From Spirochaetota bacterium (GTDB taxonomy: Bacteria > Spirochaetota > GWE2-31-10 > JAFGQB01): DNA of 33,221 nucleotides. This document shows positions 1-14,898 of the stretch, in pieces. Below the pieces are notes generated by a model. That model searched no databases and was not told the origin of the DNA. It saw only the letters and a program-made list of their open reading frames with translations. The first letter of the stretch is position 1. The number at the start of each line of letters is the position of its first letter. The translations under genes were made by a program, and so were the position numbers. The stretch lies in the NCBI GenBank assembly GCA_046703745.1, contig JBJKSS010000446.1, forward strand, positions 1-33,221, in the 5' to 3' direction.

Positions 1-41
1 AAATGGACGGGCATGACACCGGGGGAATATCATAAATTCAA
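1..41 (+). repeat. Left copy of the 41-nt direct repeat (AraC gene tail) bounding the AT-rich island
   Basis: aaatggacgggcatgacaccgggggaatatcaTaaattcaa versus 14845-14885 aaatggacgggcatgacaccgggggaatatcaGaaattcaa. The repeat may extend upstream beyond the window edge. Confidence 0.85.
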
Positions 42-48
42 ACAATAA
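1..48 (+). CDS. 3' end of an AraC/XylS-family transcriptional regulator gene (partial; continues upstream of the window)
   Basis: Frame 1 reads KWTGMTPGEYHKFKQ*. This is the same HTH tail as the ORF at 14593..14898 (KKWTGMTPGEYQKFNRQV*). Nt 1-41 equal 14845-14885 except for one base. Confidence 0.7.
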   Translation, partial: KWTGMTPGEYHKFKQ

Positions 49-252: not shown

Positions 253-2676
253 ATGACAACGAAGAAAAAAGACCTGCCCTTAAACATCGGGCTGGTTTTG
301 GGAGAACTGGATGAGACATATCACAATTTAATCTGGCCTAATTTTGTAAAAATAACAAAAAATTTGAATATAAATCTTTTTTTGATAGTAGGCAGACAGC
401 TTGACTATTCGTTATATGACGAGAAAGAGCAGAATATAATTTACAACTTAATTGATAAAAAAATATTTAACGGATTAATTTTATTTTCCGGTTCTTTGGG
501 ACATTTTATTGATTATAAAGAATTGGAAATTTTCATGGAGAGATTTAAAGACATTCCTGCAGTAGGGATCAATGAAAACATAAAGGGAATTCCCAGTGTT
601 TTAATGAATAGCAAAAAAGGGGAAGAAGAACTGCTGGAGCATTTAATCCATGAGCATGGATATTTAAATTTTGCTTTTATCAGGGGGCCTGAAGGTCATC
701 AAGCAGCTATTGCCAGGTATGATGTCTTTATGGAAACATTAAGAAAATATCATATTCCGCTCGACAATACCCTAGTCTCTACTCCTGGAAATTTTCTTAT
801 GAATTCAGGTGAAAGTGCAGTTAAAGAATTTTTAAGCACAGACAAAAAAATCGATGTGATTGTTTCTGCAAATGATGAAATGGCCATTGGTGCAATCAAT
901 GAATTGAATCGGAACGGCATCAAGGTTCCGGACGATATTGCTGTAGTCGGGTTTGATAATACCGATGAAGCCATTTTTTTTTCGCCGCCGTTAACTACAG
1001 TTAAACAACCGTATTATGAATTGTGCAAGAAAGCGATTGATTTGCTTATGCGTATTATTACCGGGCAAGATATTCCTCAAAATATTGAGGTTCATACAAA
1101 ACTTGAAATTAAACGTTCCTGCGGCTGCGATTATCCCGGCATAAAAAAAATAAAAATGATCAAGGCCATGCAAAATTTATCCCTCCCGGTAGAATATTCT
1201 GCTCTTGTAGAAAACAAAAGTCAGATCATTAATGAGACCCTTGAAATGTCAAATATATCAAGTTACTTGAAACAACAGGTTAGTGACTGGTTTGAAAAAA
1301 TAATCGATGAAATTACTGTCAAAATGAAAAACAAAAATGAAATGAATTTCCTTCTTTATTCATTTATTAATTTCCCGGAAAATATAATTTTTGATTTTTA
1401 TGATTATGAAATACTAAAAGAAATTCTGGATATTTTTATTTCTAATTGTTCAAGATATTTGCATAATCCTGAAGACAAAAAAGCTCTGGTAAATATGCAG
1501 AAAATCGGAAATATTTTGATTGATGAGACAATGAGTCAGAATAAGGCGCTGGAAAGCGTACATTTTAGGAAAAATTCCAAAAAACTCCAGAAAACGAGCC
1601 AATATTTTATTACTTCTTTAAATATTGAAATGCTTACTCGAAGGCTTGCAGAAGAACTTCCACAAATTGGTATTAATAGTTGTTATATCATTCTCTATGA
1701 AAGCAGGGTAGTAAGAAAATCAAAATATGACTGGAGTATTCCACAAAATTCACGTCTCATTTTTGCTTTAGAATCAGGTAAAAATATCAATCTTGATCCG
1801 AATGAGGTAAGATTCAATACTTACGAATTATTACCCGATAAGTTTTTTAAGCAAACAGAAAATATGAATATGATATTAATGCCATTACTATATAAAAATG
1901 AACACTTTGGCTTTATCCTTTTTGAGTTGGGTTCCATAAGAAATCTAATGTATGAGACAATCAGGGCTCAAATCAGTACTACTATTAAAAAAGTTAAGGA
2001 CCACGAGGAAGATAAATATTCTGCATTGGGAATGCTTTTTGGCGGAATCTCTCATGAAATACTCAATCCTTTGGGAGGAGTTTTTGCTCCACTGGAAAAT
2101 TTAAAAATCTGCCTCGAAGAAAGCAATATTAATAATCACGATAAAATCAGTACTTACATAGACAGAATGGAAAACAATCTATTAAGAATAGAAAACCTGA
2201 TCAAAGGATTGCGCACCTTATATCATGACCGGGTGCTTATAAAATCGGAGATAAATCTTTTAGAGGCTGTGAATATTGCAGCAGACAATATAAAAAATGC
2301 GTTGAAGCCATTGATCGAACTAAAACTGAATATTCCCGCAGATACTTATGTAATGGCTAACCACCAGGCACTTGTTATTATTGTTCAAAATTTATTAAAA
2401 AACGCCAATGATGCAATCCCCAAATCAGGTTGTATTGAAATTAATTATAAAACAAAAAGTAATTTTAAATACCTTGTAATAAAAGATAATGGAATCGGGA
2501 TAGAGAATAGCAGGCTCAATGATATTTTTAATGCATTTTATACAACAAAAGAAGTGGGGAAAGGCACAGGTCTGGGCCTGTACCTGGTAAAAGATCTCGT
2601 ATTGAGAATGAACTGGGAAATAAACGTAACCTCAGCAGTAAATCATGGGTCAGAATTTATTTTGGTGATTAAATAA
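253..2676 (+). CDS. Soluble hybrid sensor histidine kinase: LacI/PBP1-type sugar-binding domain, GAF-like middle region, HisKA/HATPase_c
   Basis: 807-aa ORF with AGGA about 7 nt upstream of the ATG. The N-terminal ~290 aa carry the LacI-family ligand-binding signature (VSANDEMAIGAINELNRNGIKVPDDIAVVGFDN...PPLTTVKQP). There is no LacI HTH and no obvious TM or signal segment. The C-terminus has H-box GGISHEILNPLGG, N-box NLLKNANDAI, G1 IKDNGIGI, and F/G2 FNAFYTTK..GKGTGLGLYLV. Confidence 0.85.
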   Translation: MTTKKKDLPLNIGLVLGELDETYHNLIWPNFVKITKNLNINLFLIVGRQLDYSLYDEKEQNIIYNLIDKKIFNGLILFSGSLGHFIDYKELEIFMERFKDIPAVGINENIKGIPSVLMNSKKGEEELLEHLIHEHGYLNFAFIRGPEGHQAAIARYDVFMETLRKYHIPLDNTLVSTPGNFLMNSGESAVKEFLSTDKKIDVIVSANDEMAIGAINELNRNGIKVPDDIAVVGFDNTDEAIFFSPPLTTVKQPYYELCKKAIDLLMRIITGQDIPQNIEVHTKLEIKRSCGCDYPGIKKIKMIKAMQNLSLPVEYSALVENKSQIINETLEMSNISSYLKQQVSDWFEKIIDEITVKMKNKNEMNFLLYSFINFPENIIFDFYDYEILKEILDIFISNCSRYLHNPEDKKALVNMQKIGNILIDETMSQNKALESVHFRKNSKKLQKTSQYFITSLNIEMLTRRLAEELPQIGINSCYIILYESRVVRKSKYDWSIPQNSRLIFALESGKNINLDPNEVRFNTYELLPDKFFKQTENMNMILMPLLYKNEHFGFILFELGSIRNLMYETIRAQISTTIKKVKDHEEDKYSALGMLFGGISHEILNPLGGVFAPLENLKICLEESNINNHDKISTYIDRMENNLLRIENLIKGLRTLYHDRVLIKSEINLLEAVNIAADNIKNALKPLIELKLNIPADTYVMANHQALVIIVQNLLKNANDAIPKSGCIEINYKTKSNFKYLVIKDNGIGIENSRLNDIFNAFYTTKEVGKGTGLGLYLVKDLVLRMNWEINVTSAVNHGSEFILVIK

Positions 2677-2682
2677 AGCCGA

Positions 2683-4071
2683 TTATTTGTACTTATAAAA
2701 TTGATCCTTTTTTATTTTGGTACTTTTTACGGCTTCTGTTACATTCCCGTGAAAATGGTTTAATATTTCCTTTATGACAGATGCCTTGATGTCGGAAAGT
2801 GTTAGCTTTTTATTTATCATGCTGTCCTTAATTATTCTAATAACATCGCTAAACGGCTGATCATCCTCCTCCATTCCTTCCAGCAAAAATTCTATATTTT
2901 CCAGCTTTATTTCATTTTCATTCTTAGACCGGATAACTATTTGCCTGATTATGTTTTCCATCTCTCGTATATTACCCGGCCATTTATAGTTTGTTAACCT
3001 GTGTATAACCAAATCACTAATGCCGGGCTCTTCGATTCCATATTTGTCAGAATGTTTTTTTATAAAATGCTTTAATAAATCAGGAATATCCTGGCGTCTT
3101 TCTCTAAGCGATGGCAAATTTATTGGAAATTCACCAATACGATAAAATAAATCCTTACGAAATAATTTTTCATGAACAGCATTTTTTAAATTGACATTGG
3201 TCGCACAGATTAAATGAAAATCCACATCCATAGGTACAGTGTCACCCAGGCGGTAAACTTTTTTTTCCTGAATAACCCTGAGAAGTTTTGCCTGTAAGTC
3301 CGGTTTTAATTCACCTATTTCATCCAGAAATAAAGTGCCGTTGTTTGCCAGCTCAATTTTCCCCGGCTTATCAACTCTGGCATCTGTAAAAGCTCCCTTT
3401 TTATAGCCAAACAATTCACTTTCAAATAATGAATCCGGAACAGCTGCACAGTTTATTTTTATAAATGGTTGATTTTTTCTCTCGCTAAGATCGTGGATTA
3501 ATTTGGCAGCTAATTCCTTTCCTGTGCCTGTTTCACCGGTAATCAGAACATTGGCAAATCTTTCTGAAACCAATTGAATATTATCAAAAACTGCTTTAAG
3601 CCCCTTATCCAGCCCGATAATATCATACTGATATCCTAACTGTTGCTTTAATACTTCATACTTATATGTGGACAAATTAAACTCATTATCCTTCTTTATG
3701 TCGCTTTTACAGGCTGCTACAGCTTTATCTATGGCATATTTTAAAATTTTTAATTTCAATGGCTTTTCAACAATTTTATCAATCAAACCCCTGTTAATTA
3801 CTGTTTCTAAAAGTGGTTTGTCTATGTATGCACTAAAAAGAATACCGTAATTATAGGCGTTTATTTTTTTTGCTTCAATCAATAACTCCAGCCCTGATAA
3901 CCCTGGCATTTTATAGTCAACAATTAATATTTCATAATTTTTTTTTCGGAGTTCGTTCAGTGCATCAGCAGGGGAAGAAAATGTAGTTAAACTGAATGAT
4001 TTAAAATATTCTTCTATATCCAGCAGAAGAGATTTTTCATCATCAACAACCATTATATTAATATCTTTCAT
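2683..4071 (-). CDS. Sigma-54-dependent response regulator (NtrC family: REC, AAA+ sigma-54 interaction domain, Fis-type HTH)
   Basis: REC domain: IMVVDDEKS...DYKMPGLSGLELL. Walker A: ITGETGTGKELAA. GAFTGA-loop variant: KKGAFTDA. Also FLDEIGEL, RVIQEKKVYRLGD, LFYRI and LPSLRERRQDIPDL. C-terminal HTH: GNVTEAVKSTKIKKDQFYKY. Convergent with the kinase, with a 6-nt gap. Confidence 0.9.
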   Translation of the reverse strand: MKDINIMVVDDEKSLLLDIEEYFKSFSLTTFSSPADALNELRKKNYEILIVDYKMPGLSGLELLIEAKKINAYNYGILFSAYIDKPLLETVINRGLIDKIVEKPLKLKILKYAIDKAVAACKSDIKKDNEFNLSTYKYEVLKQQLGYQYDIIGLDKGLKAVFDNIQLVSERFANVLITGETGTGKELAAKLIHDLSERKNQPFIKINCAAVPDSLFESELFGYKKGAFTDARVDKPGKIELANNGTLFLDEIGELKPDLQAKLLRVIQEKKVYRLGDTVPMDVDFHLICATNVNLKNAVHEKLFRKDLFYRIGEFPINLPSLRERRQDIPDLLKHFIKKHSDKYGIEEPGISDLVIHRLTNYKWPGNIREMENIIRQIVIRSKNENEIKLENIEFLLEGMEEDDQPFSDVIRIIKDSMINKKLTLSDIKASVIKEILNHFHGNVTEAVKSTKIKKDQFYKYK

Positions 4072-4293
4072 ACAATATTCGCCCTAAAATTGAAAAAAGA
4101 TAGTTAAATACCTTGTGGTTATCTAAAAAAAAATTTTAAGATAGGCACAGCATGCTGCATTATTTTCATTCAATCTTTTAAAAAGCGTTTCATTATTCAT
4201 TAATTAATTTTATTTATATATCATATTTATAATAATTATATAACAAAAATAATTAACTATTTTCTAAAAAATAGAAATTATTGTCTAATTTTT

Positions 4294-4322
4294 AGATATT
4301 TTCTATCAGTCAGAAAATATCT
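4294..4322. promoter_or_regulatory. Perfect 11-bp inverted repeat (AGATATTTTCT-N7-AGAAAATATCT); candidate enhancer (UAS) for the NtrC-type activator
   Basis: Read directly from the sequence. It lies about 75-100 bp upstream of the -24/-12 element, the usual distance for bEBP binding sites. Confidence 0.4.
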
Positions 4323-4396
4323 GCCCGCCTGTCCCATGTATGTATTTTATTATATTTCCATGAGTTATGTTCGTTTTTAATTGTTTAATTTTTTTG

Positions 4397-4412
4397 TGGC
4401 ACAATTATTGCT
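4397..4412 (+). promoter_or_regulatory. Sigma-54 (-24/-12) promoter facing the biosynthetic operon
   Basis: TGGCACAATTATTGCT fits the consensus TGGCAC-N5-TTGCW exactly, with GG and GC correctly spaced. It sits in the spacer between the divergent activator gene and the operon. The predicted transcription start is near 4423, giving a ~255-nt leader. Confidence 0.75.
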
Positions 4413-4677
4413 CAACAGGAGTCGGATATAAGAATAAGATATAGATAAATTTTTGTTTCATTTGTCAGTTGTTTCTGGCAGCAAAAACTATCATATCGTT
4501 TTTAGTACATTCTTTCAGAATAAATAATTTATTAATGCAGGGGAAAAATGAGCAAAGACAAATTGGGCTGCTTTGGAAATTCAGGATAAAGTTGTTTTGT
4601 TTTGCAAAAAAATTTTATAGGCGCTATTACAAACTATCTCATATTGATTAGAATTAAACAAAGACAAGGACATTATT

Positions 4678-6054
4678 ATGCAAGGGGAATGCAGGGAGTA
4701 TCCATTATTTCCGTCACAAAAGAGGATTCTAAAAAATATTAATCCTCCTCATCACTGGAATATATCATATATGTTGTTTTTGAAAAGCAGATACAACGCA
4801 TCTGTTTTAAAAAAGGTTTTAGATGATATTGTTGGCAGACATGAAGTTTTTAAATTGCGGTTCATTAAGAAAGGGAATAATTTTGTACAACAGTTTGACC
4901 CGGCACGCACGAATAATTATATTTTTATTGAAACAGAAGTAACTGAAAGTAATAATCAAGAGAAAATCATTCATGATATCATGGAGAGCGTACAGGAATC
5001 TATTAATATTTTTGACGGTCCTTTACTCAGTGTTGGCTTGATTAAAACAGGCATGGGCGATCATCTTTACGTTGTGGTACATCATCTCATTTCGGATGCT
5101 TATTCCTTCAAATTGCTTATATATGATCTGATTTATGGTTATATGGAATTATTAAAAAATAATAAAAAATATACTCCTCCGAAAACTGATTCATTCATTG
5201 AAGCAATTGAAAACCTTTATGCATATTCCAACGGCAAGTTGATTGACGAAGAGGTTAAGTACTGGAAAAAAGTGCTGGGCACGAAATCGAAAGAGCTGCC
5301 CATGGATAATAAAATCACAAGAGAACAAAAAACAGAAATATATAATTCGAATATCAACGAAGCATTATTGGATGAGAAAAAATATGAAGAACTGAAAAAT
5401 ATTTTAAAAAAATTTAAAATCAGTGAATATGAATTTTATTTGTCAATTTTAGGATTAAGCATCTGTGACTGGAAAAAAGATACCACTGCTTTTGTAAAGC
5501 TGGCTTATCATGGCAGAAGTAATTTTAATGGAAGATTGAATTTACACAGGACCCTCGGGCCTTTCTGGGTAACATATCCTGTTGTTTTGGATACAGTAAA
5601 CAGGGATAATACCATCGAAAGAGTCAGAGTAATAAAAGATATGCTGGAAAATATTCCTGGCAAAGGGCGTGGGTATGAAGTTTTAAAGGAAATACTTCTG
5701 GAAAATGATAGGGAATTCATCGAGCTTGACACTACTGTACCCAATATACTATTCAATTATTACGGCAAAATGAATGAAAAAACTCTAATTGATCCGGAGT
5801 TTGGCAATCTGTCCCCGTATTTTCAGGATTTCAACAGGCACAAAAAAGCTCATTGTGACTTTACTCTTATATTTAATTTAAGGGAAATAGATAACTGTCT
5901 AAGATTGCAACTAATTTATAATAAAATTGAATTTAGCGATGATAATATGAATGTTCTGTTTAACTGTTTTCAGAACAATTTATATATATCAATAAATGAA
6001 TTAAAGAATAAATATTTGGATTTAACCCAAATTGTGCTTAAAACCCCGGGTTAA
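4678..6054 (+). CDS. Stand-alone NRPS condensation-superfamily protein, epimerization (E)-domain-like
   Basis: AAGGA lies 8 nt upstream of the ATG. Motifs line up with the GrsA E domain as I recall it. HHWNISYMLF matches HHWNQSYMLY. VVHHLISDAYSFKLL matches HHLVVDGISWRIL. AYHGRS...RTLGPFWVTYPVVLD matches EGHGRE...RTVGWFTSQYPVVLD. IPGKGRGYE matches IPNKGIGYE, and ILFNYYGK matches INFNYLGQ. Confidence 0.85.
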   Translation: MQGECREYPLFPSQKRILKNINPPHHWNISYMLFLKSRYNASVLKKVLDDIVGRHEVFKLRFIKKGNNFVQQFDPARTNNYIFIETEVTESNNQEKIIHDIMESVQESINIFDGPLLSVGLIKTGMGDHLYVVVHHLISDAYSFKLLIYDLIYGYMELLKNNKKYTPPKTDSFIEAIENLYAYSNGKLIDEEVKYWKKVLGTKSKELPMDNKITREQKTEIYNSNINEALLDEKKYEELKNILKKFKISEYEFYLSILGLSICDWKKDTTAFVKLAYHGRSNFNGRLNLHRTLGPFWVTYPVVLDTVNRDNTIERVRVIKDMLENIPGKGRGYEVLKEILLENDREFIELDTTVPNILFNYYGKMNEKTLIDPEFGNLSPYFQDFNRHKKAHCDFTLIFNLREIDNCLRLQLIYNKIEFSDDNMNVLFNCFQNNLYISINELKNKYLDLTQIVLKTPG

Positions 6055-6193
6055 TTTTAATAAAGCATTGCAAGATTAAATCGGGGTATTTTATAGTGAT
6101 GGCAAACGCATAGTAGTTTTGTCATTATAACTGCATGAATGACTTGTTTGTTGCCTGTTGTTAAAAATATATTAGTGAGGGGCATAATATTAA

Positions 6194-7267
6194 ATGACTA
6201 TTGCATCATTTCCTAAAATGGATGACGGATCCCGTAATCCATATCTGTTTTTGCTAAAAAACAGCTTAGAAAAAAACAAGCTGAAGATTGAGTCTTCCAA
6301 TCCAAATCATTTGTCATTTAAATGGCTAATCAAAAACAGGAAAAAAGTAAGCATATTACATTTGCACTGGATACAATATCATTACATCAATATAGATAAA
6401 AAACGACTTTCAGTCAGGCTGTTATTAAATTTTATTTTAAATCTATTTGTTGCACGTATAATGAGTTATAAAATAGTTTGGACCATGCATAATGTTCATC
6501 CGCATGAAAACAAGTACCCTGTAATTGATTTTTTAATCAGATTAGTGCTGACCAAATTAACAAATGCTATCATAACTCACTGTAATTATGGGAAAGAATA
6601 TCTTTTGAAAAAATATAAACGAAAGGAAAATGTTGCTGTTATACATCATCCTAATTATATTAACGTTTATCCGGATCGGATATCCAGGGAGAGTGCCAGA
6701 CAAAAGTTGGGAATCCCACTCGGGAGTTTGGTATTTTTATTTCTGGGGGAAATTCGAAATTATAAAGGGCTAAATTCTCTCATTGAGACATTCAAAGCAT
6801 ATAAAAATAATAATTCACATTTGATAATTGCAGGGCATCCGCTTTTTTCGTGGACAGAAAACGAATTGGTTAAACTGATTAATAATGATAGACGAATCAT
6901 CGCCAATTTTATGTTTATTCCCGATAATGATTTACAAGTTTATTTTAAAGCCTCTGATGTTATGATACTCCCATTCACAAATATCACAATGTCAGGATCG
7001 TTGTTACTTGGAATGTCTTTTGGTAAGCCGATTGTTGCACCGGCTATTGGCGGCATTAATGAATACATAAAGGATGATTCAGGTATTTTATATTATCCGG
7101 GAGACACAAAAAATCTTCTTGAGGCTTTACAAAAATGTGAAAATCAAGACCTGTCCGGCATGGGTTATAACGGGTATCAATCCGTGAAAAATTATACATG
7201 GGATAATTTGGCTGAAAAAATAATCCAGATTTATACATCATTTATGAAAGAGAAAAAAACGATATGA
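6194..7267 (+). CDS. Glycosyltransferase, GT-B fold (GT4 / group 1 family)
   Basis: 357 aa. The C-terminal half is typical of group-1 GTs (FLFLGEIRNYKGLNSLIETF, ASDVMILPF...SGSLLLGMSFGKPIVAPAIGGINEYI). The N-terminal half has the HLHW / VWTMHNVHPHE pattern common in polysaccharide GTs. Confidence 0.75.
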   Translation: MTIASFPKMDDGSRNPYLFLLKNSLEKNKLKIESSNPNHLSFKWLIKNRKKVSILHLHWIQYHYINIDKKRLSVRLLLNFILNLFVARIMSYKIVWTMHNVHPHENKYPVIDFLIRLVLTKLTNAIITHCNYGKEYLLKKYKRKENVAVIHHPNYINVYPDRISRESARQKLGIPLGSLVFLFLGEIRNYKGLNSLIETFKAYKNNNSHLIIAGHPLFSWTENELVKLINNDRRIIANFMFIPDNDLQVYFKASDVMILPFTNITMSGSLLLGMSFGKPIVAPAIGGINEYIKDDSGILYYPGDTKNLLEALQKCENQDLSGMGYNGYQSVKNYTWDNLAEKIIQIYTSFMKEKKTI

Positions 7268-8415
7268 AAATTGCATTGGTTAGCAGGTATTATAATAAAC
7301 ATCAGGGTATTCCGCATGATGTTGTAGAATTAGCAGAAAGATTTGTGAAAAAACATGAAGTCCATGTTTTTTCACAGACATGGCAGTGTGGAGGCGGTAC
7401 GAATATCATCTTCCATAAAATACCTGCGATTGCACCGAAGAGCTTTATTAATGAGCTTTTCTTCTTTTTTATGGCGGGCATAATCCTTAGAAAACATAAG
7501 TTTGATGTGGTCAATTTTCATGACCCATGCTGGTACCCAGGTGGAATTTTTACCTGTCATGCTTTCCCTGAAGCAGGCATTAAAATCATAAAGGAATTTA
7601 ATAAAAAAATAAACATGGGCATTAATCCCCTTTTATTCCTGCCGTTTACACTTTTATATCCCATATCAAACTTTAATATGAAATCAAGTAAAGTCAAAAA
7701 AATAATTTCTGTCTCCAGCTTCATAAAAGAAAAGATCAAAGAAATATTACACAGATCAGAGAATACGATTGAGGTTATTCCAAACGGCATTGATATTGCC
7801 AGATTTAACCCTGGTATAAAAAGAATATATAAATCAGACATTATGAAAAAGCACAATTTGAAAGATAGTGACTTTATCATATTGTTTGTTGGATATTATC
7901 ATTTGAGAAAAGGGTTACATCTTTTGATTCAGGCCATGTCTTTGATAAAAAATAAAAACGCAAAAGTGCTGGTTGTAGGTGATGATGATTTCGGCAAGAA
8001 ATATATTCATTCTATTATCAGAGAGCATGGGCTGGAAAACAGGATAATATATGCCGGAGATCAGCCTGAAGTTTACCGGTATTTTTCTGTAGGAAATCTG
8101 CTTGCCCTGCCGACTCTTTACGAGCCTTTTGGAAATGTTGTTTTAGAAGCCATGGCATGCGGATTGCCTGCTATTGTTTCAAAATTGGCGGGAGTCTCGG
8201 ATTTGATAGAGGATGGTAAAAATGGATTTTTAATTAATGATCCAGCCAATACAAAAGAAATCGCGCTAAAAATACAAACCATAATGGATAATAAAAATCG
8301 ATACAAACAAATTGCTGATAATGCATGCAGCACTGCTCAAAAGTATACATGGGATATCATAGCAGTGCAAACACTTTTACTCTTTGAAAAAACAGTATCC
8401 AGAAAAAATAAATAA
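7264..8415 (+). CDS. Glycosyltransferase family 4 (group 1)
   Basis: ATGA overlap with the upstream gene indicates translational coupling. It has the classical GT4 EX7E region YEPFGNVVLEAMACGLPAIVSKLAGVSDLIEDGKNGFL. Confidence 0.85.
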   Translation: MKIALVSRYYNKHQGIPHDVVELAERFVKKHEVHVFSQTWQCGGGTNIIFHKIPAIAPKSFINELFFFFMAGIILRKHKFDVVNFHDPCWYPGGIFTCHAFPEAGIKIIKEFNKKINMGINPLLFLPFTLLYPISNFNMKSSKVKKIISVSSFIKEKIKEILHRSENTIEVIPNGIDIARFNPGIKRIYKSDIMKKHNLKDSDFIILFVGYYHLRKGLHLLIQAMSLIKNKNAKVLVVGDDDFGKKYIHSIIREHGLENRIIYAGDQPEVYRYFSVGNLLALPTLYEPFGNVVLEAMACGLPAIVSKLAGVSDLIEDGKNGFLINDPANTKEIALKIQTIMDNKNRYKQIADNACSTAQKYTWDIIAVQTLLLFEKTVSRKNK

Positions 8416-8488
8416 CCAGAATTTTGATTCACTATCGAGAGTCGAAATTCTGTTAATAATATAAATTTTAAAACAAAGGATGATTTTT

Positions 8489-9214
8489 ATGTCAGACAAC
8501 AAAATATACGAAGAAGTTGAAAAGTACTTCGATAAATGTGCACCACTGTACAGTAAAATTCATATTGATATGCCTTCAATTGATAACTGGCAGTTTGGTA
8601 ATTTGTTTAATGAGATGGATTTAACGAAAACCCCGACAGTACTGGATCTTGGAACAGGAGACGGGAATTTACTTCTTCATATAGGAAAATGGAACAGGGA
8701 ATGCAAATTGATCGGCATTGATCTTTCTGAAAAAATGATTGAAGTGGCAAGGGATAACCTTTTAAAGGAGGGGCTGAGTGCCAGATTTTTAAAGGCAAAT
8801 ATGGAAAAAATCGATCTTGAAACTGATTCCATAGATTATGTAGTCAGTAATGGAGCTCTTCATCATGTAAAGGACAAACAATCGCTGTATTCCGAAATAT
8901 TCAGGGTTTTAAAAAAAGGCGGCAAGCTGATTGTTATTGATGGATTTGATATTCTTGATGATGAGTACAGAAATTTACAAAAAGAACTAAAGGAAAAAGA
9001 TCCGGTTTTCTGGGTAAGCTATATAGATGATAACAACAGGTATCAGGAGTTTCTCAAAAAAGAAACCCCTGCGGATCTTATAGATCATCCCGTTGAATAT
9101 CATTTGTCACCTTTTCAATTAAAGAGGTTATTGGAGGATATTGGTTTCGTAAATGTCAGGATTATAGCAAGTCCTCTCAATTTTGCCATATATATAGGTG
9201 AGAAGTCTGTTTAA
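8489..9214 (+). CDS. Class I SAM-dependent methyltransferase
   Basis: Motif I VLDLGTGDGNL, then GALHHV, then LKKGGKLIVID. The ORF track starts at 8480, but the ATG at 8489 has AAGGA 8 nt upstream, so it is the more likely start. Confidence 0.85.
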   Translation: MSDNKIYEEVEKYFDKCAPLYSKIHIDMPSIDNWQFGNLFNEMDLTKTPTVLDLGTGDGNLLLHIGKWNRECKLIGIDLSEKMIEVARDNLLKEGLSARFLKANMEKIDLETDSIDYVVSNGALHHVKDKQSLYSEIFRVLKKGGKLIVIDGFDILDDEYRNLQKELKEKDPVFWVSYIDDNNRYQEFLKKETPADLIDHPVEYHLSPFQLKRLLEDIGFVNVRIIASPLNFAIYIGEKSV

Positions 9215-9254
9215 AAAATGTGCATATGCATAAAATAGCAGAAGGATAAACTTA

Positions 9255-10331
9255 ATGCAAAAAATACTTCCGGTGAATCTGGATACAAAAATTACAACCG
9301 AAATTTACAATCATATCCGCCTGGCTGCTATTCTCAGTGAGGAAGGTTTCCTTCCCTGGTTTATCGAGAGATTTATTGTATTATACATGGATGAAAACTA
9401 TTTTTTCTCCAATTATTATATGTACGGCTCGCTTTCTGCAAGATATGTATATGATGAGGTTTTATTGTCGTTCCCCGTATCATGTAAAAGCAATATTATT
9501 GATGAAATAAAAAAACATATAGACAACCATGGGTATGTACAAATTTTATGTGATAAGTATTATATAGAAGGAAGTACATTTTATCAAAAATCACACTTTT
9601 TTCACGATCTTATGCTAATAGGGTATGCAGATAATCCATCCTTGTTTTTCTTCGTAGACTTGAATATTAATAAAAAACTCACCGGTGTGCACTCTATCAG
9701 CGAAGGAAGTTTGCTAAGTTCCTGGGATGCAACATTAAAATTCATAAAAGGAAAAAAGCCGGAAGAATTATATAATCTGTCTTTTATGCAGTTTGATTTT
9801 CCTGTTTCGGCGTTTTATTTACGCAAGGAAAATACGAGAAAATTACCCAATCTTAACTATATCTATTATTCACTCCAGTATTGCCAGAATAATCCTGTTT
9901 ATCAGACAAACTTTTGTGGATTAACATCAATAAACAGGATTGGTTCAGCCATATACCGGATATACTATGAAAATCTTTATCAACGGCTTCAGGAGGAAAA
10001 ATATAAAAATATTTTGCTGGAACATGATGGCGTTATCCTTATTAGCCTTAAAAGGCTCATAGAAAATAAAATGGGGATGCATTTCAGGCTTAATTACTTG
10101 ATGGGGAAAAAAATGATTGCAGAAGATTTACTTCTTCTGGATAAAATGTATCTTGTAAAAGAAAATCTGGAATATGCATTTAATTGCCTGGTAAAATATG
10201 CCTGTACATTTGATTTTGAACTTCTTGAAGAAGCGATGACTATTTTCAAAGAAACACAAAAAATTGATGCTGAAAATCTGGATAAAAGCCTGCAGCTTGT
10301 AGGCAAGACCATACAACAAGGTTATTGCTAA
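9255..10331 (+). CDS. Hypothetical protein of unknown function (possible papain-fold / BtrH-N-like acyltransferase relic)
   Basis: 358-aa ORF embedded in the operon with short gaps on both sides. I recognise no family with confidence. The only hint is an HFFHDLMLIGYAD segment, resembling the His strand of C39/BtrH_N-type papain-fold proteins. No matching N-terminal Cys is evident. Confidence 0.7.
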   Translation: MQKILPVNLDTKITTEIYNHIRLAAILSEEGFLPWFIERFIVLYMDENYFFSNYYMYGSLSARYVYDEVLLSFPVSCKSNIIDEIKKHIDNHGYVQILCDKYYIEGSTFYQKSHFFHDLMLIGYADNPSLFFFVDLNINKKLTGVHSISEGSLLSSWDATLKFIKGKKPEELYNLSFMQFDFPVSAFYLRKENTRKLPNLNYIYYSLQYCQNNPVYQTNFCGLTSINRIGSAIYRIYYENLYQRLQEEKYKNILLEHDGVILISLKRLIENKMGMHFRLNYLMGKKMIAEDLLLLDKMYLVKENLEYAFNCLVKYACTFDFELLEEAMTIFKETQKIDAENLDKSLQLVGKTIQQGYC

Positions 10332-10356
10332 GCAAGAAAAGGAGAAAAATCTGAAC

Positions 10357-12753
10357 ATGAATAATAACAGGGACTGCCTTTTTTGCCTGGAAACCGGCCA
10401 TAAAAACAAATTGGAAGATCTGGCAAATAAAGAAAATATTTTTACTTCACACATAATTCTAGCAATGATTGATGTTCTCCTTTCCCGTTACTGGTTTCAG
10501 GAGAAAATAAGCATGGGCATTGTCACTTCTAATTCCCTTCTTCCTGTTACGACAAGCCTGGTTGAAAATGACGGATTTTTAACCCTATGCCGTAATCTGG
10601 CAAACAAATTGAATAATATCAATGAAACTTTCAGAGAAAATACGAGCAGTCACGAGCAGTCAGAATATTCCGAGCCGGATGCATGCAATGTGATATTTAC
10701 CGATTGTGATGAGCAGACCGAGATGGGAACTATTCTGAAATGGAGTCAAGATAAAATTGTTTTTTTTATTTCTTATAAAAATAACCAGATTCAGATAAGA
10801 GTAAAAAATGAAATTAAAGCCCGGTTTTTTCCTGAATTCGAACTGTTCATAAATCATTTTATTACATTTTTAAATGTAATTCTTGTTGACCCGCTTACTC
10901 CCATCCATGAAATTGAAATAATTTCCGGGCGGGAAAAAGATACTCTTATCCATCAATTCAATGATACCCATGTTGGCCGGGATGAAACATGCCTGGTGCA
11001 GATGTTTCAAAAAATTGTGGATAAATATCCACGTAACGATATGATTGTGTTTGGCGGTCAGAGAATATCCTACGAATTTATTAACAAAAAATCCAATCAG
11101 CTTGCCCGGTATTTACGGGAAACGTTGAGGGTCAGACCCGGCGTAATTGTGGCTTTACATACGGATGTTTCTGTTGAGATGGTTATTGGAATATTCGGCA
11201 TATTAAAATCCGGGGGCATATATTTGCCCCTGTCACCCGATAACCCGGAAGAAAGGAATGAGCTCATTACACATGAGAGTAAGGCAAAAATAATCCTTCA
11301 AAACAGCAAACATAATGTATGCTTTCATGACAAAACTGTACTCGATATTTCTCTCGGTTATGAGGATATTTACACAGGGGATGACTCTAATGTTGAAGTT
11401 ATCCATCAGAGTTCTGATATTGCATATATCATTTATACTTCCGGAACCTCCGGGAAACCCAAAGGTGTCATGATAAAACACGGGGGCATAGCCAATTCAC
11501 TTCTGTGGAGAATAAATGAATACGGGTTTACAACCAGCGATACCATTTTGCAGCTATTCTCCCATGTTTTTGACGGATTCATTACCAGTTTTTTTACTCC
11601 TGTCCTGTCTGGTGCAACTTTGATTCTTACGAATAAAGAACAAATCACTGATCCGGGATTTATGACGGAAACCTTACGGCTAAACAGGGTCACTTCTTTT
11701 TTATGTATACCTCCTCTTTTTCAGGCAATCCAGGAGCTAATGGATGTTGAAATTGCAAAAAATATAAGATGCATTACATTAGCCGGAGATCAAGTTGACA
11801 AAAAAAGCATTGAGAATTTCAATAAAAAATACCCGTGGATAGAAATTATTAATGAATACGGCCCTACGGAGAATAGTGTTGTTTCTACTATCAAACGTAA
11901 TTTACAGGATGACGAAGTGGTCACCATAGGGAAACCCATTGCCAATACCAGAGTATTCATATTAAATCAAAAAGGTAAACTTGTGCCTGTTGGAGCTCCG
12001 GGCGAAATATGTTTATCAGGAAGAGGTCTGTCCCCGGGATATCTTAACCGTCCTGATCTGAATGAAAAATATTTTGTTCCAAATTCATACATTGACAATG
12101 AACCAATGTATAAAACAGGTGACCTGGGGCGCTGGCGATTCGACGGAAACATAGAATTTCTTGGCAGATTGGATTTTCAGGTTAAAATCAGGGGATTCCG
12201 GATAGAATTAAATGAAATCGAAAATTCCATTTTACAACATCCAAAAATTGATGAAGTGGTAGTCGTTGCATCCGGAAAATCCAGTCAAAACAGATATTTG
12301 TGTGCATTTTACAAAAACAAGAACAATGAAGACGCCAGTAATTTACAGGATTGGTTGAAAACGAAACTTCCTGACTATATGATACCGTCTTTTTTTATGC
12401 AGATGAGCACTTTCCCCCTGACAGATACCGGCAAAACAGACAGGAAAAAACTTGTTGAAACAGGAAATGATTTTGTCACAAACAAAAACACGGAAAAACC
12501 CTTAACCGGGATAGAGTCTCAAATTTGTGAAATATGGAAGCAGCTCCTAAAAACTGATCGGATAGGAACGGACGATGATTTTTTTTCACTGGGTGGTGAT
12601 TCGATTTCGATAATACAGATGCAGGTAGCCGTTGAGAAATTGTTTAACATTCGGTTAAGTGTCAAAAAACCGGAGGAATATTCCACTATTAGATCGTTGT
12701 CGGGGATTGTCGGCAATATTCTGAAAAAAGCGCCAAAGGAGTCTTCCTGTTGA
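10357..12753 (+). CDS. NRPS module: C-terminal lobe of a condensation domain, adenylation domain, peptidyl carrier protein; no TE domain
   Basis: The N-terminal ~190 aa resemble only the second half of a C domain (TSHIILAMIDVLLSRYWFQEKISMGIVTS) and have no HHxxxDG motif. A-domain motifs: A3 AYIIYTSGTSGKPKGV, A5 NEYGPTE, A7 YKTGDLGRW, A8 GRLDFQVKIRGFRIEL, A9 LPDYMIPS, A10 TGKTDRKKL. PCP motif: FFSLGGDSISIIQM. Confidence 0.9.
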   Translation: MNNNRDCLFCLETGHKNKLEDLANKENIFTSHIILAMIDVLLSRYWFQEKISMGIVTSNSLLPVTTSLVENDGFLTLCRNLANKLNNINETFRENTSSHEQSEYSEPDACNVIFTDCDEQTEMGTILKWSQDKIVFFISYKNNQIQIRVKNEIKARFFPEFELFINHFITFLNVILVDPLTPIHEIEIISGREKDTLIHQFNDTHVGRDETCLVQMFQKIVDKYPRNDMIVFGGQRISYEFINKKSNQLARYLRETLRVRPGVIVALHTDVSVEMVIGIFGILKSGGIYLPLSPDNPEERNELITHESKAKIILQNSKHNVCFHDKTVLDISLGYEDIYTGDDSNVEVIHQSSDIAYIIYTSGTSGKPKGVMIKHGGIANSLLWRINEYGFTTSDTILQLFSHVFDGFITSFFTPVLSGATLILTNKEQITDPGFMTETLRLNRVTSFLCIPPLFQAIQELMDVEIAKNIRCITLAGDQVDKKSIENFNKKYPWIEIINEYGPTENSVVSTIKRNLQDDEVVTIGKPIANTRVFILNQKGKLVPVGAPGEICLSGRGLSPGYLNRPDLNEKYFVPNSYIDNEPMYKTGDLGRWRFDGNIEFLGRLDFQVKIRGFRIELNEIENSILQHPKIDEVVVVASGKSSQNRYLCAFYKNKNNEDASNLQDWLKTKLPDYMIPSFFMQMSTFPLTDTGKTDRKKLVETGNDFVTNKNTEKPLTGIESQICEIWKQLLKTDRIGTDDDFFSLGGDSISIIQMQVAVEKLFNIRLSVKKPEEYSTIRSLSGIVGNILKKAPKESSC

Positions 12754-12806
12754 TAAATCAAAATTTGTTTTGAATTAAATTATAATTATCGGGAGAAAGA
12801 TTAGAA

Positions 12807-14564
12807 ATGAAAAAAAGAAATTACATTGGTCTGGCTACAACGTTCCATGATAGTGCAATAGCAATTATTAATCCGGAGGGCAAAGTTGTTTTTGCAGAAG
12901 CAAGTGAACGTTATATGCAGGATAAGCGGGGGTATAACCAGATACCTGACCATATATTCAGGTCGGGGAAATTAATCAAAAAATATTGTGATCCCGATGC
13001 TGATTTTGTGTTGTCCCAGTCATGGTTAAAGCCGGATCAGGAAGCCGAAATAAAAGGCTTGAAGGAAATGAGAGAAAACAATGACATGATTCTAAAACAA
13101 ATTGGGCAGAATGATTTTTATATACGCAGAGCTATAAGCAATATGGAGTATCTTGCAACATTTATGACGCATAATATCCACAACGCAGGGCATGCTCTAA
13201 AAAGGCAACTTGGCATCAATAAAAAATTTCATAATGCCAATATTATTACGAAGCATTACGACCATCATCTTGCACATGCCGCGACAGCATGTTTTACCAG
13301 TCCGTTTGATGAAGCGGCCTGTCTTATCATAGACGCCGGTGGAGAAGCCGAGAAAAGTTATGGAATATTTCATTATAGTAATGGGAAAATAACAGAAGTC
13401 GATGCTTCTCCGAAAAAAGCAACCGGAAGCCTGGGTATATTTTTTTCATGGGTCTGCCAGACCTGTGGTTTTGACCTGATGGCCAATGAAGAATGGAAAG
13501 TAATGGGTCTGGCTCCTTATGGCAAGCTTGACAATAAGATATACAAAATTTTTAAAGATTTCATCAAGATCGAAGGTTTTACAATACCGCCCTGGAGCTT
13601 TGACCATATCCGGAATTTTTTAAAAAAATGTTCTGAAATAGAACCGACGGATGATATGACGCCTTATGATGTAGCAGATACAGCCTATACAGGGCAAATG
13701 GTATTTGAAGAATTATATTTCGACCTTATTAATAAGGTACATGCATTGGGGCTTTCTGAAAATCTGGTCATGGGCGGAGGCTGCAGTCTTAATTCTACTG
13801 CAAATGGGAAAATAACGGAGAATACCCCGTTTAATAAAGTGCATATATACAGCGCACCGGCCGATGATGGGAATGCATTGGGTGCAGCATGGTTATCCTA
13901 TTTTGAGGATCATCCTGAAAAGCGCATAACCCCGGAGCTGTTTACTCCATATCTGGGCTCGACTATTAAAACAGAGTCTTTTAAAAACTTTAAACGTTTC
14001 GCAAAAATAAAGAATATGAAAGAACATAATGGTGATGTACATATCCGGGCCGCAGAATTGTTGGCACAAAATAAAATTATCGGCTGGGTGCAGGGAGCTG
14101 CCGAGTTTGGCCCGCGCGCACTGGGTAACCGTTCCATTCTCGCCAGTCCTGCATATCCTGATATTAAGAATCAAATTAATGCGCGGGTGAAATTCCGTGA
14201 AGAGTTCAGGCCCTTTGCACCATCCATCCTACATGAACACGGTCCGGAATATTTTATAAATTATGAAGAATCTCCATATATGGAACGTACATTAAAATTT
14301 TATGATGAAGTCAAGGATAAAATACCCGGGGTAGTACATGCAAACAATTCCGGCAGGCTGCAAACAGTAAAGCGTGAGTGGAACGAAAGATATTACGACC
14401 TGATTAATCATTTTTATAAATTGACAGGTATCCCTATATTATTGAATACCAGCTTTAACATAATGGGTAAGCCAATTATACATTCCATAGAAGATGCTCT
14501 GGCATTTTTTTATACCACGGGTCTCGATGCACTTGTGGTTGAAGACATTATTATAGAAAAATAA
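12807..14564 (+). CDS. Carbamoyltransferase, NodU/CmcH/TobZ family
   Basis: 585 aa with GGAGA upstream. N-terminus IGLATTFHDSAIAIINPEGKVVFAEASERY, then HHLAHAATACFTSPF, GGGCSLNSTANGKI and APADDGNALGAAW. The C-terminal domain has GPRALGNRSIL and FNIMGKPII. Confidence 0.9.
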   Translation: MKKRNYIGLATTFHDSAIAIINPEGKVVFAEASERYMQDKRGYNQIPDHIFRSGKLIKKYCDPDADFVLSQSWLKPDQEAEIKGLKEMRENNDMILKQIGQNDFYIRRAISNMEYLATFMTHNIHNAGHALKRQLGINKKFHNANIITKHYDHHLAHAATACFTSPFDEAACLIIDAGGEAEKSYGIFHYSNGKITEVDASPKKATGSLGIFFSWVCQTCGFDLMANEEWKVMGLAPYGKLDNKIYKIFKDFIKIEGFTIPPWSFDHIRNFLKKCSEIEPTDDMTPYDVADTAYTGQMVFEELYFDLINKVHALGLSENLVMGGGCSLNSTANGKITENTPFNKVHIYSAPADDGNALGAAWLSYFEDHPEKRITPELFTPYLGSTIKTESFKNFKRFAKIKNMKEHNGDVHIRAAELLAQNKIIGWVQGAAEFGPRALGNRSILASPAYPDIKNQINARVKFREEFRPFAPSILHEHGPEYFINYEESPYMERTLKFYDEVKDKIPGVVHANNSGRLQTVKREWNERYYDLINHFYKLTGIPILLNTSFNIMGKPIIHSIEDALAFFYTTGLDALVVEDIIIEK

Positions 14565-14592: not shown

Positions 14593-14898
14593 ATGCATAT
14601 AATAAACACGATGCTTTCAAAAGGCGAGAGGCCGTCAATAGAAAAGGCCGCAGCAGAGTTTGCAATGAGCGTCAGGAACCTCCAGAATAAACTGAAGGAG
14701 GAGAAGGCTTCATATCAGGGTATCCTTGAAAATTTGAGGAAGAAAATCGCAGTGGAATACCTGAAAAACCCGGGTGCATCGATCTGTGAAATCACGTTCC
14801 TCCTCGGGTTCTCGGAGCAGAGCTCATTCAACCATGTATTCAAAAAATGGACGGGCATGACACCGGGGGAATATCAGAAATTCAACCGGCAGGTTTAG
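14593..14898 (+). CDS. AraC/XylS-family HTH domain only (about 100 aa); probably a 5'-truncated gene remnant
   Basis: It encodes just the C-terminal dual-HTH region (SIEKAAAEFAMSVRNLQNKLKEE...ICEITFLLGFSEQSSFNHVFKKWTGMTPGEY). There is no ligand or dimerisation domain and no convincing RBS. The ORF begins exactly at the composition break. Confidence 0.6.
   Translation: MHIINTMLSKGERPSIEKAAAEFAMSVRNLQNKLKEEKASYQGILENLRKKIAVEYLKNPGASICEITFLLGFSEQSSFNHVFKKWTGMTPGEYQKFNRQV
14845..14885 (+). repeat. Right copy of the 41-nt direct repeat (AraC gene tail)
   Basis: 40 of 41 bases identical to nt 1-41. Confidence 0.85.

Follow-up and report, generated by a model that had tools for sequence, protein, structure and literature searches.

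INTRODUCTION

In the NtrB-NtrC system acting at glnAp2, and in the wider NtrC1-DctD class (Aquifex aeolicus NtrC1, PDB 1NY5), a soluble histidine kinase is paired with an activator built of a receiver domain (REC), an AAA+ domain, and a helix-turn-helix (HTH), with a coiled-coil linker behind the receiver. Two upstream dyads (about -110 to -150) precede a -24/-12 promoter. Here, we describe a locus that resembles these systems in those respects, with an HTH predicted from a structural model, and that lies on a contig from an uncultured spirochaete. The source is a 3.3-Mb metagenome-assembled genome (MAG) that is 86% complete, and the window that we analyzed is one whole contig (C446; 33,221 bp). 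It carries a soluble histidine kinase gene, an NtrC-type activator gene, and, beyond a spacer containing a sigma-54 promoter and two dyads, a seven-gene biosynthetic operon. We consider it likely that these parts form a self-contained, island-borne circuit of the NtrBC style, and we likewise favor the whole chain from kinase through activator, dyads, and sigma-54 promoter to the operon as the explanation of the sequence features described below.

The locus departs from the NtrB-NtrC and NtrC1 systems in several ways. The sensor consists of a LacI-type periplasmic-binding-protein (PBP) domain followed by helical and alpha/beta domains, rather than a PAS domain. The kinase and activator genes are convergent and do not form an operon, the L1 loop of the activator reads GAFTDA, and its short HTH tail scores below the Pfam threshold. 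The circuit would control a biosynthetic operon and not genes for nitrogen or C4-dicarboxylate metabolism.

A type I PBP fold and a histidine kinase occur in one polypeptide in the hybrid two-component systems of Bacteroides, where they sense carbohydrates, as in the fructose sensor BT1754. Those PBP-type sensors are periplasmic and flanked by transmembrane (TM) segments, and they carry their own receiver and AraC output, whereas the kinase described here is soluble and would signal to a separate sigma-54 activator. Sigma-54 control of secondary-metabolite clusters is known from the activators of Myxococcus. Putative sigma-54 promoters have been predicted in 69% of 180 polyketide synthase and nonribosomal peptide synthetase (PKS/NRPS) clusters (PMC3665592), and sigma-54-type regulators make up 2% of the response regulators in cluster-linked two-component systems (PMC10663231). 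Sigma-54 control of an NRPS-type locus, which a first-pass annotation of this DNA had called unusual, thus has precedent. The locus shares with the PKS/NRPS clusters a -24/-12 promoter placed at a carrier-protein-based biosynthetic operon. It differs in that a dedicated activator, a candidate enhancer, and a candidate kinase all adjoin the cluster on one island, and the circuit can therefore be read directly.

RESULTS

A predicted sigma-54 promoter and two dyads upstream of the operon

The principal features, by position in the window, are as follows.

253 to 2676, + strand: soluble histidine kinase gene, 807 amino acids (aa); open reading frame (ORF), Pfam, AlphaFold2 (AF2) model
2683 to 4071, - strand: NtrC-type activator gene, 462 aa; ORF, Pfam, alignments, AF2 model
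Between activator gene and operon: AT-rich spacer of 606 bp (GC content 0.275 for the interval 4001 to 5000, which holds it)
4258 to 4280, no strand: distal dyad TATTTTCT-N7-AGAAATTA, candidate second enhancer site, center about -154 from the predicted start
4294 to 4322, no strand: proximal perfect dyad AGATATTTTCT-N7-AGAAAATATCT with 11-bp arms, candidate enhancer (upstream activating sequence), center about -115
4397 to 4412, + strand: sigma-54 promoter TGGCAC-N5-TTGCT, TGGCACAATTATTGCT
4423 to 4677, + strand: predicted AT-rich leader of 255 nucleotides (nt), counted from the predicted start
4678 to 14564, + strand: operon of seven genes; ORFs, Pfam

The first-pass annotation had proposed a perfect -24/-12 element pointing into the operon, and the site indeed matches the consensus with 0 mismatches. 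Its GG (4398-4399, -25/-24) and GC (4410-4411, -13/-12) are exactly 10 bp apart, which places the predicted transcription start near 4423. Within the window, TGGCACAATTATTGCT is the sole perfect match to TGGCAC-N5-TTGCW, and matches with one or two mismatches occur at chance level (14 found versus 15.3 expected). Genome-wide, the form TGGCAC-N5-TTGCT has 6 occurrences, where an order-1 Markov model predicts 1.3; the shorter TGGCAC-N5-TTGC is not enriched (7 versus 5.6). All six TGGCAC-N5-TTGCT sites are intergenic and co-oriented with the downstream ORF, in a genome of which 91% lies within long open frames (at least 100 codons). Because the sites are enriched, all intergenic, and all directed at genes, they are, judged by these counts, real promoters as a class.

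The sigma factor that such promoters need is encoded in the genome. The rpoN gene, whose presence had been suggested as a check, lies on another contig (C373) in the arrangement rpoN-hpf-hprK (the last an hprK-like gene). It is cut by the contig end and retains a Sigma54_DBD match of 174.9 bits and the RpoN box, ARRTVAKYR. The genome also encodes at least 11 sigma-54 AAA+ activators.

The 11-bp inverted repeat reported earlier at enhancer distance is likewise perfect, and it does not stand alone: 39 bp upstream lies a second copy with the same 7-bp spacer. Both centers fall in the classic enhancer range. When up to one mismatch to TATTTTCT-N7-AGAAAATA was allowed, a genome-wide search found these two sites alone. 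As the motif is unique in the genome, we suggest that its regulator is dedicated to a single promoter. A dyad or sigma-54 site common to the activator orthologues was not found in 13 relative loci or in L049 and L050, and matches to the dyad half-site at orthologue loci are at chance level. An intrinsic terminator is rejected as an explanation of the inverted repeat, given its AT-rich stem, the lack of a T-run behind it on either strand, and a terminator scan that does not call it.

The first operon gene has its ATG 281 nt from the promoter, a spacing that implies the 255-nt leader. No significant structure is predicted in the leader (RNA fold z = +1.0). We reject a riboswitch or other structured leader on the basis of this fold score and of the sole Rfam match, which is below threshold and outside the leader (a Caenorhabditis small nucleolar RNA model, 26.5 bits versus a gathering cut-off of 80, at 4707-4824 within the first operon gene). 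The leader does contain a 13-codon ORF, MSKDKLGCFGNSG (4548-4589), behind an AGGGGA Shine-Dalgarno-like motif, and a 38-codon ORF from 4535 overlaps it.

A similar layout, with an activator gene divergent from a sigma-54 promoter, occurs at another locus (L023 on G019:C91). There, TGGCACGGTATTTGCA (at about 6720, - strand) is divergent from the activator gene and points into the partner kinase gene. The activator at that locus is more distant (41% identity) and has the canonical GAFTGA.

An NtrC-type activator with a predicted, divergent HTH tail

Pfam identifies the activator by Response_reg (PF00072, 46.9 bits), Sigma54_activat (PF00158, 222 bits), and AAA_lid_14, and its parts are as follows.

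aa 6-114: REC domain, phospho-acceptor Asp52
aa 107-144: coiled-coil linker helix (AF2 model)
aa 151-317: sigma-54 AAA+ domain, Walker A GETGTGKE, Walker B LFLDE
aa 226-231, nt 3379-3396: L1 loop GAFTDA
After the AAA+ domain: lid domain (AAA_lid_14)
aa 425-462: short Fis-like HTH tail

In the alignment, the receiver residues D10, D11, D52, and K103 are invariant. The catalytic motifs are intact (GETGTGKE, LFLDEIGE, the arginine-finger region FRKDLFYRI, and sensor II PGNIREMEN). The AF2 model (predicted local distance difference test score [pLDDT] of 90.6) is matched best by Foldseek to NtrC1 in its inactive state, and also to NtrX, NtrC4, and LuxO, with full-length alignment to NtrX and NtrC1. 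We infer that the unphosphorylated receiver would exert negative control on the activator, because the long linker helix resembles the coiled-coil linker of NtrC1 and DctD.

The divergent activator had been annotated as a REC-AAA+-HTH protein. Pfam supports REC and AAA+, whereas the HTH falls below the Pfam threshold and is seen in the AF2 model, where helices 425-439, 444-451, and 455-461 (pLDDT of about 93) make up a C-terminal helix-turn-helix. A profile of the tail has no match in the PDB. Members of the clade share the tail motif GN[VI]xxAVxxTGIxK[DN][RK]FY, which passes gradually into canonical HTH_8 sequences among remoter homologues. On this model, the tail is a divergent, short Fis-type HTH.

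The substitution of GAFTDA for GAFTGA, in the loop with which such activators touch sigma-54, is present as first noted, but it is not remarkable. Among 69 aligned clade homologues, the loop reads GAFTGA in 33, GAFTDA in 13, GAFSNA in 7, and GAFSGA in 7, and the closest homologue, at 55% identity, also has GAFTDA. The variant keeps the Phe and Thr. In Desulfovibrio vulgaris, DVU2106 carries GAFTDA as a natural variant compatible with activation and is listed with sigma-54-dependent target operons (PMC4641369). We therefore reject the idea that GAFTDA marks independence from sigma-54, as in VpsR and Caulobacter NtrC.

The kinase core resembles the partners of the activator orthologues

Among the closest systems are spirochaete loci (P0125-P0182; L016, L018, L022, L050) in which a histidine kinase-receiver-histidine kinase (HK-REC-HK) protein accompanies an activator that is 44-55% identical to the one described here and has the same tail motif. 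In five relatives from sister families within the order (G008, G010, G012, G013, and G014), this large membrane kinase lies immediately upstream of the activator orthologue (44-48% identical), and the P0126 locus has the same arrangement. The core of the kinase in our window (aa 565-807) is 41-46% identical to the C-terminal core of those proteins (about 185 bits), whereas its best other match in its own genome reaches 29-30% identity and 79 bits. Because the core is akin to orthologue-adjacent kinases and far less so to kinases of its own genome, the kinase and the activator are probable partners, as the first-pass annotation had suggested. The same contrast makes the kinase look chimeric, with a lineage-expanded PBP sensor grafted onto a core derived from the second kinase of HK-REC-HK proteins.

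In other respects, those systems differ. Their kinases are membrane-bound, have a periplasmic sensor and a first kinase and receiver ahead of the core, and share a coding strand with the activator; their loci lack the dyad motif. At L016, L018, L022, and L050, the partner kinases are about 1000 aa long and each combine a periplasmic sensor with an internal receiver and two complete kinase cores. The L050 pair adjoins a TonB-ExbB-ExbD and Plug-receptor cluster, and L049, the locus of the closest activator homologue, adjoins TonB-ExbB-ExbD. Other PBP kinases accompany stand-alone receiver proteins; given this pairing and the TonB-ExbBD neighborhoods of the orthologues, the combination of a PBP kinase with a sigma-54 activator is specific to the source genome.

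In the window, the kinase and activator genes converge, with stop codons 6 bp apart, so they are neither an operon nor co-transcribed. A terminator scan found no terminator-like hairpin between the gene ends (2676-2683), and antisense read-through is possible there.

A LacI-type sensor domain in a soluble kinase

Pfam matches to the kinase are Peripla_BP_3 (93.3 bits), Peripla_BP_1 (69.7 bits), Peripla_BP_4, and HATPase_c (69.4 bits), with a marginal HisKA (26.7 bits versus a cut-off of 26.9). Its parts are as follows.

aa 11-290, nt 283-1122, + strand: LacI/GalR-type PBP effector domain
aa 289-292, window 1117-1128, + strand: SCGC motif, S289-C290-G291-C292
aa 296-312: disordered linker (AF2 model)
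aa 316-453: helical bundle (AF2 model)
aa 458-558: alpha/beta domain (AF2 model)
His601, H-box SHEILNPL: dimerization and histidine phosphotransfer (DHp) domain, entered by a long signaling helix
aa 705-806: catalytic and ATP-binding (CA) domain, with LLKNANDAI, DNGIGI, FNAFYTTK, and GKGTGLGLY as N, G1, F, and G2 boxes

The kinase is predicted to have neither a signal peptide nor a TM segment; for the latter, the highest 19-residue Kyte-Doolittle average is 1.1, below membrane-span level. It has no match to the LacI HTH (PF00356), and the PBP domain begins at residue 11, so the protein is not a LacI repressor. Pfam and hydropathy thus confirm the earlier description of a LacI-type PBP fold lacking HTH, signal peptide, and TM segment. 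The searches proposed for the N-terminal domain gave the same family by profile (Peripla_BP_3) and by structure: the top 50 Foldseek matches are all LacI-family effector domains (target-normalized TM-score, 0.7-0.87; E of 1e-17). By sequence (phmmer against the PDB), the domain matches the LacI ancestor at an E of 7e-26, and CcpA, PurR, and LacI are also matched. The nearest structures are thus cytoplasmic LacI/GalR effector domains (LacI ancestor, CcpA, PurR, RbsR, and CelR) and not periplasmic binding proteins. Residues 11-290 share with these effector domains their fold, sequence family (E of 1e-26), and cytoplasmic location. Unlike the LacI/GalR repressors, the kinase has no N-terminal HTH, the SCGC motif follows the domain, and a histidine kinase output lies past about 290 residues of extra domains. 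The middle region (aa 293-585) has no Pfam match and no PDB sequence match. The AF2 model (pLDDT of 86.9) shows the DHp hairpin, the CA fold, and a continuous helix into the DHp domain.

The PBP-plus-middle module belongs to a large family. At least 17 paralogues occur in the source genome (contigs C486, C414, C315, C30, C24, C281, C410, C158, C448, C247, C186, C305, C438, C516, C428, and C164), with kinase, hybrid kinase, GGDEF, HD-GYP, MCP, HisKA_3, and AraC outputs. Proteins that signal through a LacI-type PBP domain are widespread, which speaks against the rarity that the first-pass annotation had claimed for the circuit. Two of the paralogues with AraC outputs have N-terminal membrane segments. 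The module is also widespread in metagenomes, in Spirochaetales, Anaerolineae, and other groups, and the domain is listed among the uncharacterized sensory domains of cyclic di-GMP (c-di-GMP) enzymes in a review (PMC8846402). The SCGC motif is invariant in 65 diverse members of this PBP-signaling family, which suggests a metal, redox, or structural role not previously described. At one locus (L055, GCA_964518005.1), three tandem PBP kinase genes precede those for a stand-alone receiver and for a multi-GAF hybrid protein, and in other lineages the sensor family seems to feed branched phosphorelays.

The operon and its island

The operon encodes, in order, a free-standing condensation-type domain, two GT4 glycosyltransferases, an S-adenosylmethionine-dependent methyltransferase, a 358-aa protein with no Pfam match, an adenylation-peptidyl carrier protein (A-PCP), and a carbamoyltransferase. 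No convincing terminator occurs in the gaps between its genes. A search of 5.8 billion proteins gave only two homologues of the first gene, with identities of 47% and 37%. A scan of genome contigs with the first protein gave no match, and a comparison with 401 genomes of the phylum returned only distant NRPS condensation domains. After the operon, on the same strand (14593-14898, + strand), lies a 101-aa AraC HTH fragment identified by Pfam.

Kinase, activator, and operon share a GC content of 0.30-0.35, against 0.42-0.47 in the right flank, and all lack a close counterpart in a genome of the same genus (G001). Gene order common with that genome starts only at a P-type ATPase, at about 15188. 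No two-component genes other than those of the kinase and activator occur on the 33-kb contig. Named homologues are nearly all from Spirochaetales or Spirochaetota MAGs. The contig opens with 32 nt that are identical to the 3' terminus of the AraC ORF (window 1-48 and 14846-14898), and the two copies of this repeat flank the AT-rich block (1 to about 14600). The AraC ORF encodes an HTH alone and appears truncated.

DISCUSSION

We conclude that the circuit is well supported and follows an ordinary NtrBC-type design with an unusual, uncharacterized sensor, rather than representing a novel type of system. In the mechanism that we propose, the soluble kinase would sense a cytoplasmic small molecule through its N-terminal LacI/GalR-type venus-flytrap domain, and the signal would pass, to judge from the fold, through the helical bundle, the alpha/beta domain, and the long helix to the DHp/CA core. 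Co-inheritance of the kinase core with the activator points to Asp52 of the activator as the residue that the kinase would phosphorylate. Phosphorylation may then free the AAA+ domain from inhibition by the receiver, as in NtrC1 and DctD, in keeping with the linker helix and the best structural match. The uniqueness and position of the two dyads (TATTTTCT-N7-AGAAAWTA, at about -115 and -154) make them the probable site of activator assembly. ATP hydrolysis would remodel the sigma-54 holoenzyme at TGGCAC-N5-TTGCT, and transcription would run from near 4423 through the 255-nt leader into the seven-gene operon.

A number of observations weigh against this circuit. The activator tail scores 13.1 bits with HTH_8 (E of 0.08; cut-off of 22), against 16.6 bits for an orthologue, and the glycine of the HTH turn is replaced (TKIK versus TGIS). 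Dinucleotide shuffling of the 606-bp spacer yields a perfect repeat arm of at least 11 bp in 2.1% of cases, and such repeats number 475 in the genome; taken alone, the proximal repeat is thus modestly improbable. The 281-nt spacing to the ATG is the longest among the six promoter sites of the genome. Among metagenome orthologues of the activator, P0125 and P0126 adjoin TonB-ExbB-ExbD or TonB-dependent receptor clusters rather than biosynthetic genes, and neither relative of the operon has a sigma-54 promoter, dyad, or activator gene upstream on its short contig. Further points against the circuit, concerning gene orientation, the partners of other PBP kinases, and possible sigma-70 promoters, also favor one or the other of the alternatives considered next.

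The alternative that survives best would leave the circuit intact and change only its signal. The first-pass annotation had taken the kinase for an intracellular carbohydrate sensor and had derived from this a concrete inducing condition. The soluble LacI-type domain stands. Carbohydrate, and with it sugar as the inducing condition, is a step beyond the fold, because ligands of the LacI-family neighbors include purines and a phosphoprotein. Instead, the domain may bind a nucleobase, a nucleoside, or a sugar phosphate, an intermediate or product of the pathway, or a partner protein; alternatively, the SCGC motif may make it a redox or metal sensor. The top structural neighbors include PurR (hypoxanthine) and CcpA (HPr-Ser-P) beside sugar binders, and both the invariance of S289-C290-G291-C292 and the listing of the domain as uncharacterized favor this broader view. 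However, other close matches are RbsR with ribose, CelR with cellobiose, and the LacI ancestor with fucose, and the two glycosyltransferases of the operon would make a sugar signal physiologically sensible. Most characterized LacI/GalR effector domains bind sugars or sugar derivatives. We give a signal other than free sugar nearly even odds.

It is less probable, and in our judgment unlikely, that the PBP kinase has another target or is an orphan, with the activator receiving its phosphate from a kinase whose gene lies elsewhere, or from small phosphodonors; in that case, the sigma-54 promoter and the activator would still be real. The convergent genes favor this possibility, as their orientation gives no sign of partnership. 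So does the fact that PBP kinases in other lineages adjoin stand-alone REC proteins and not sigma-54 activators. In addition, the genome is incomplete and may hold further kinases that are unseen. Against this stand the kinship of the kinase core to the orthologue-adjacent kinases, compared with at most 30% identity to those of its own genome, and the placement of both genes in one AT-rich island as the sole two-component genes of the contig.

Less likely still is transcription of the operon mainly from a sigma-70-type promoter in the 606-bp spacer, with the sigma-54 element silent, auxiliary, or due to chance and the dyads serving as an autoregulatory operator of the activator gene or as the site of another factor. 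The operon relative at L047, which keeps the order of condensation domain and two glycosyltransferases, is preceded by a TTGACA hexamer (205-210) and by no sigma-54 element; at 4626-4654, the leader holds a weak -35/-10 match; on the minus strand, weak promoter matches (4305-4277 and 4287-4259) overlap the dyads; and the count for TGGCAC-N5-TTGC is near expectation. We give this reading less weight, as the spacer holds no more sigma-70-like matches than chance would supply (12 versus 13.9 expected), the TTGCT form is enriched and always intergenic and gene-oriented, the dyads are spaced from the promoter as an enhancer would be, and the gene next to the spacer encodes a sigma-54 AAA+ regulator whose L1 loop retains its Phe and Thr.

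In the favored circuit, every component from candidate sensor kinase through activator, enhancer, and promoter to operon lies within 14.5 kb of DNA from an uncultured spirochaete, at an orphan glycoside-type cluster. If the wiring is as proposed, this silent cluster would be switchable in a heterologous host without the signal being known, by means of a receiver-deleted or phosphomimetic activator together with sigma-54. A promoter-reporter would then serve as a functional assay for a widespread but uncharacterized LacI-type cytoplasmic sensor module. More speculatively, the kinase may be the first member with a readable output in a large uncharacterized family of cytoplasmic sensors with kinase, GGDEF, HD-GYP, MCP, AraC, and phosphatase outputs. 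Its sensor would have been grafted recently onto an NtrC-partner core, and a horizontally acquired glycoside pathway would answer to a cytoplasmic metabolite, possibly a sugar that the pathway itself consumes or makes; we regard this extended view as tentative and rather doubtful. The locus does not overturn current understanding and is a clean example more than a surprise. It illustrates how signaling may be rewired by domain grafting, here of a lineage-specific sensor onto a kinase core inherited with its activator.

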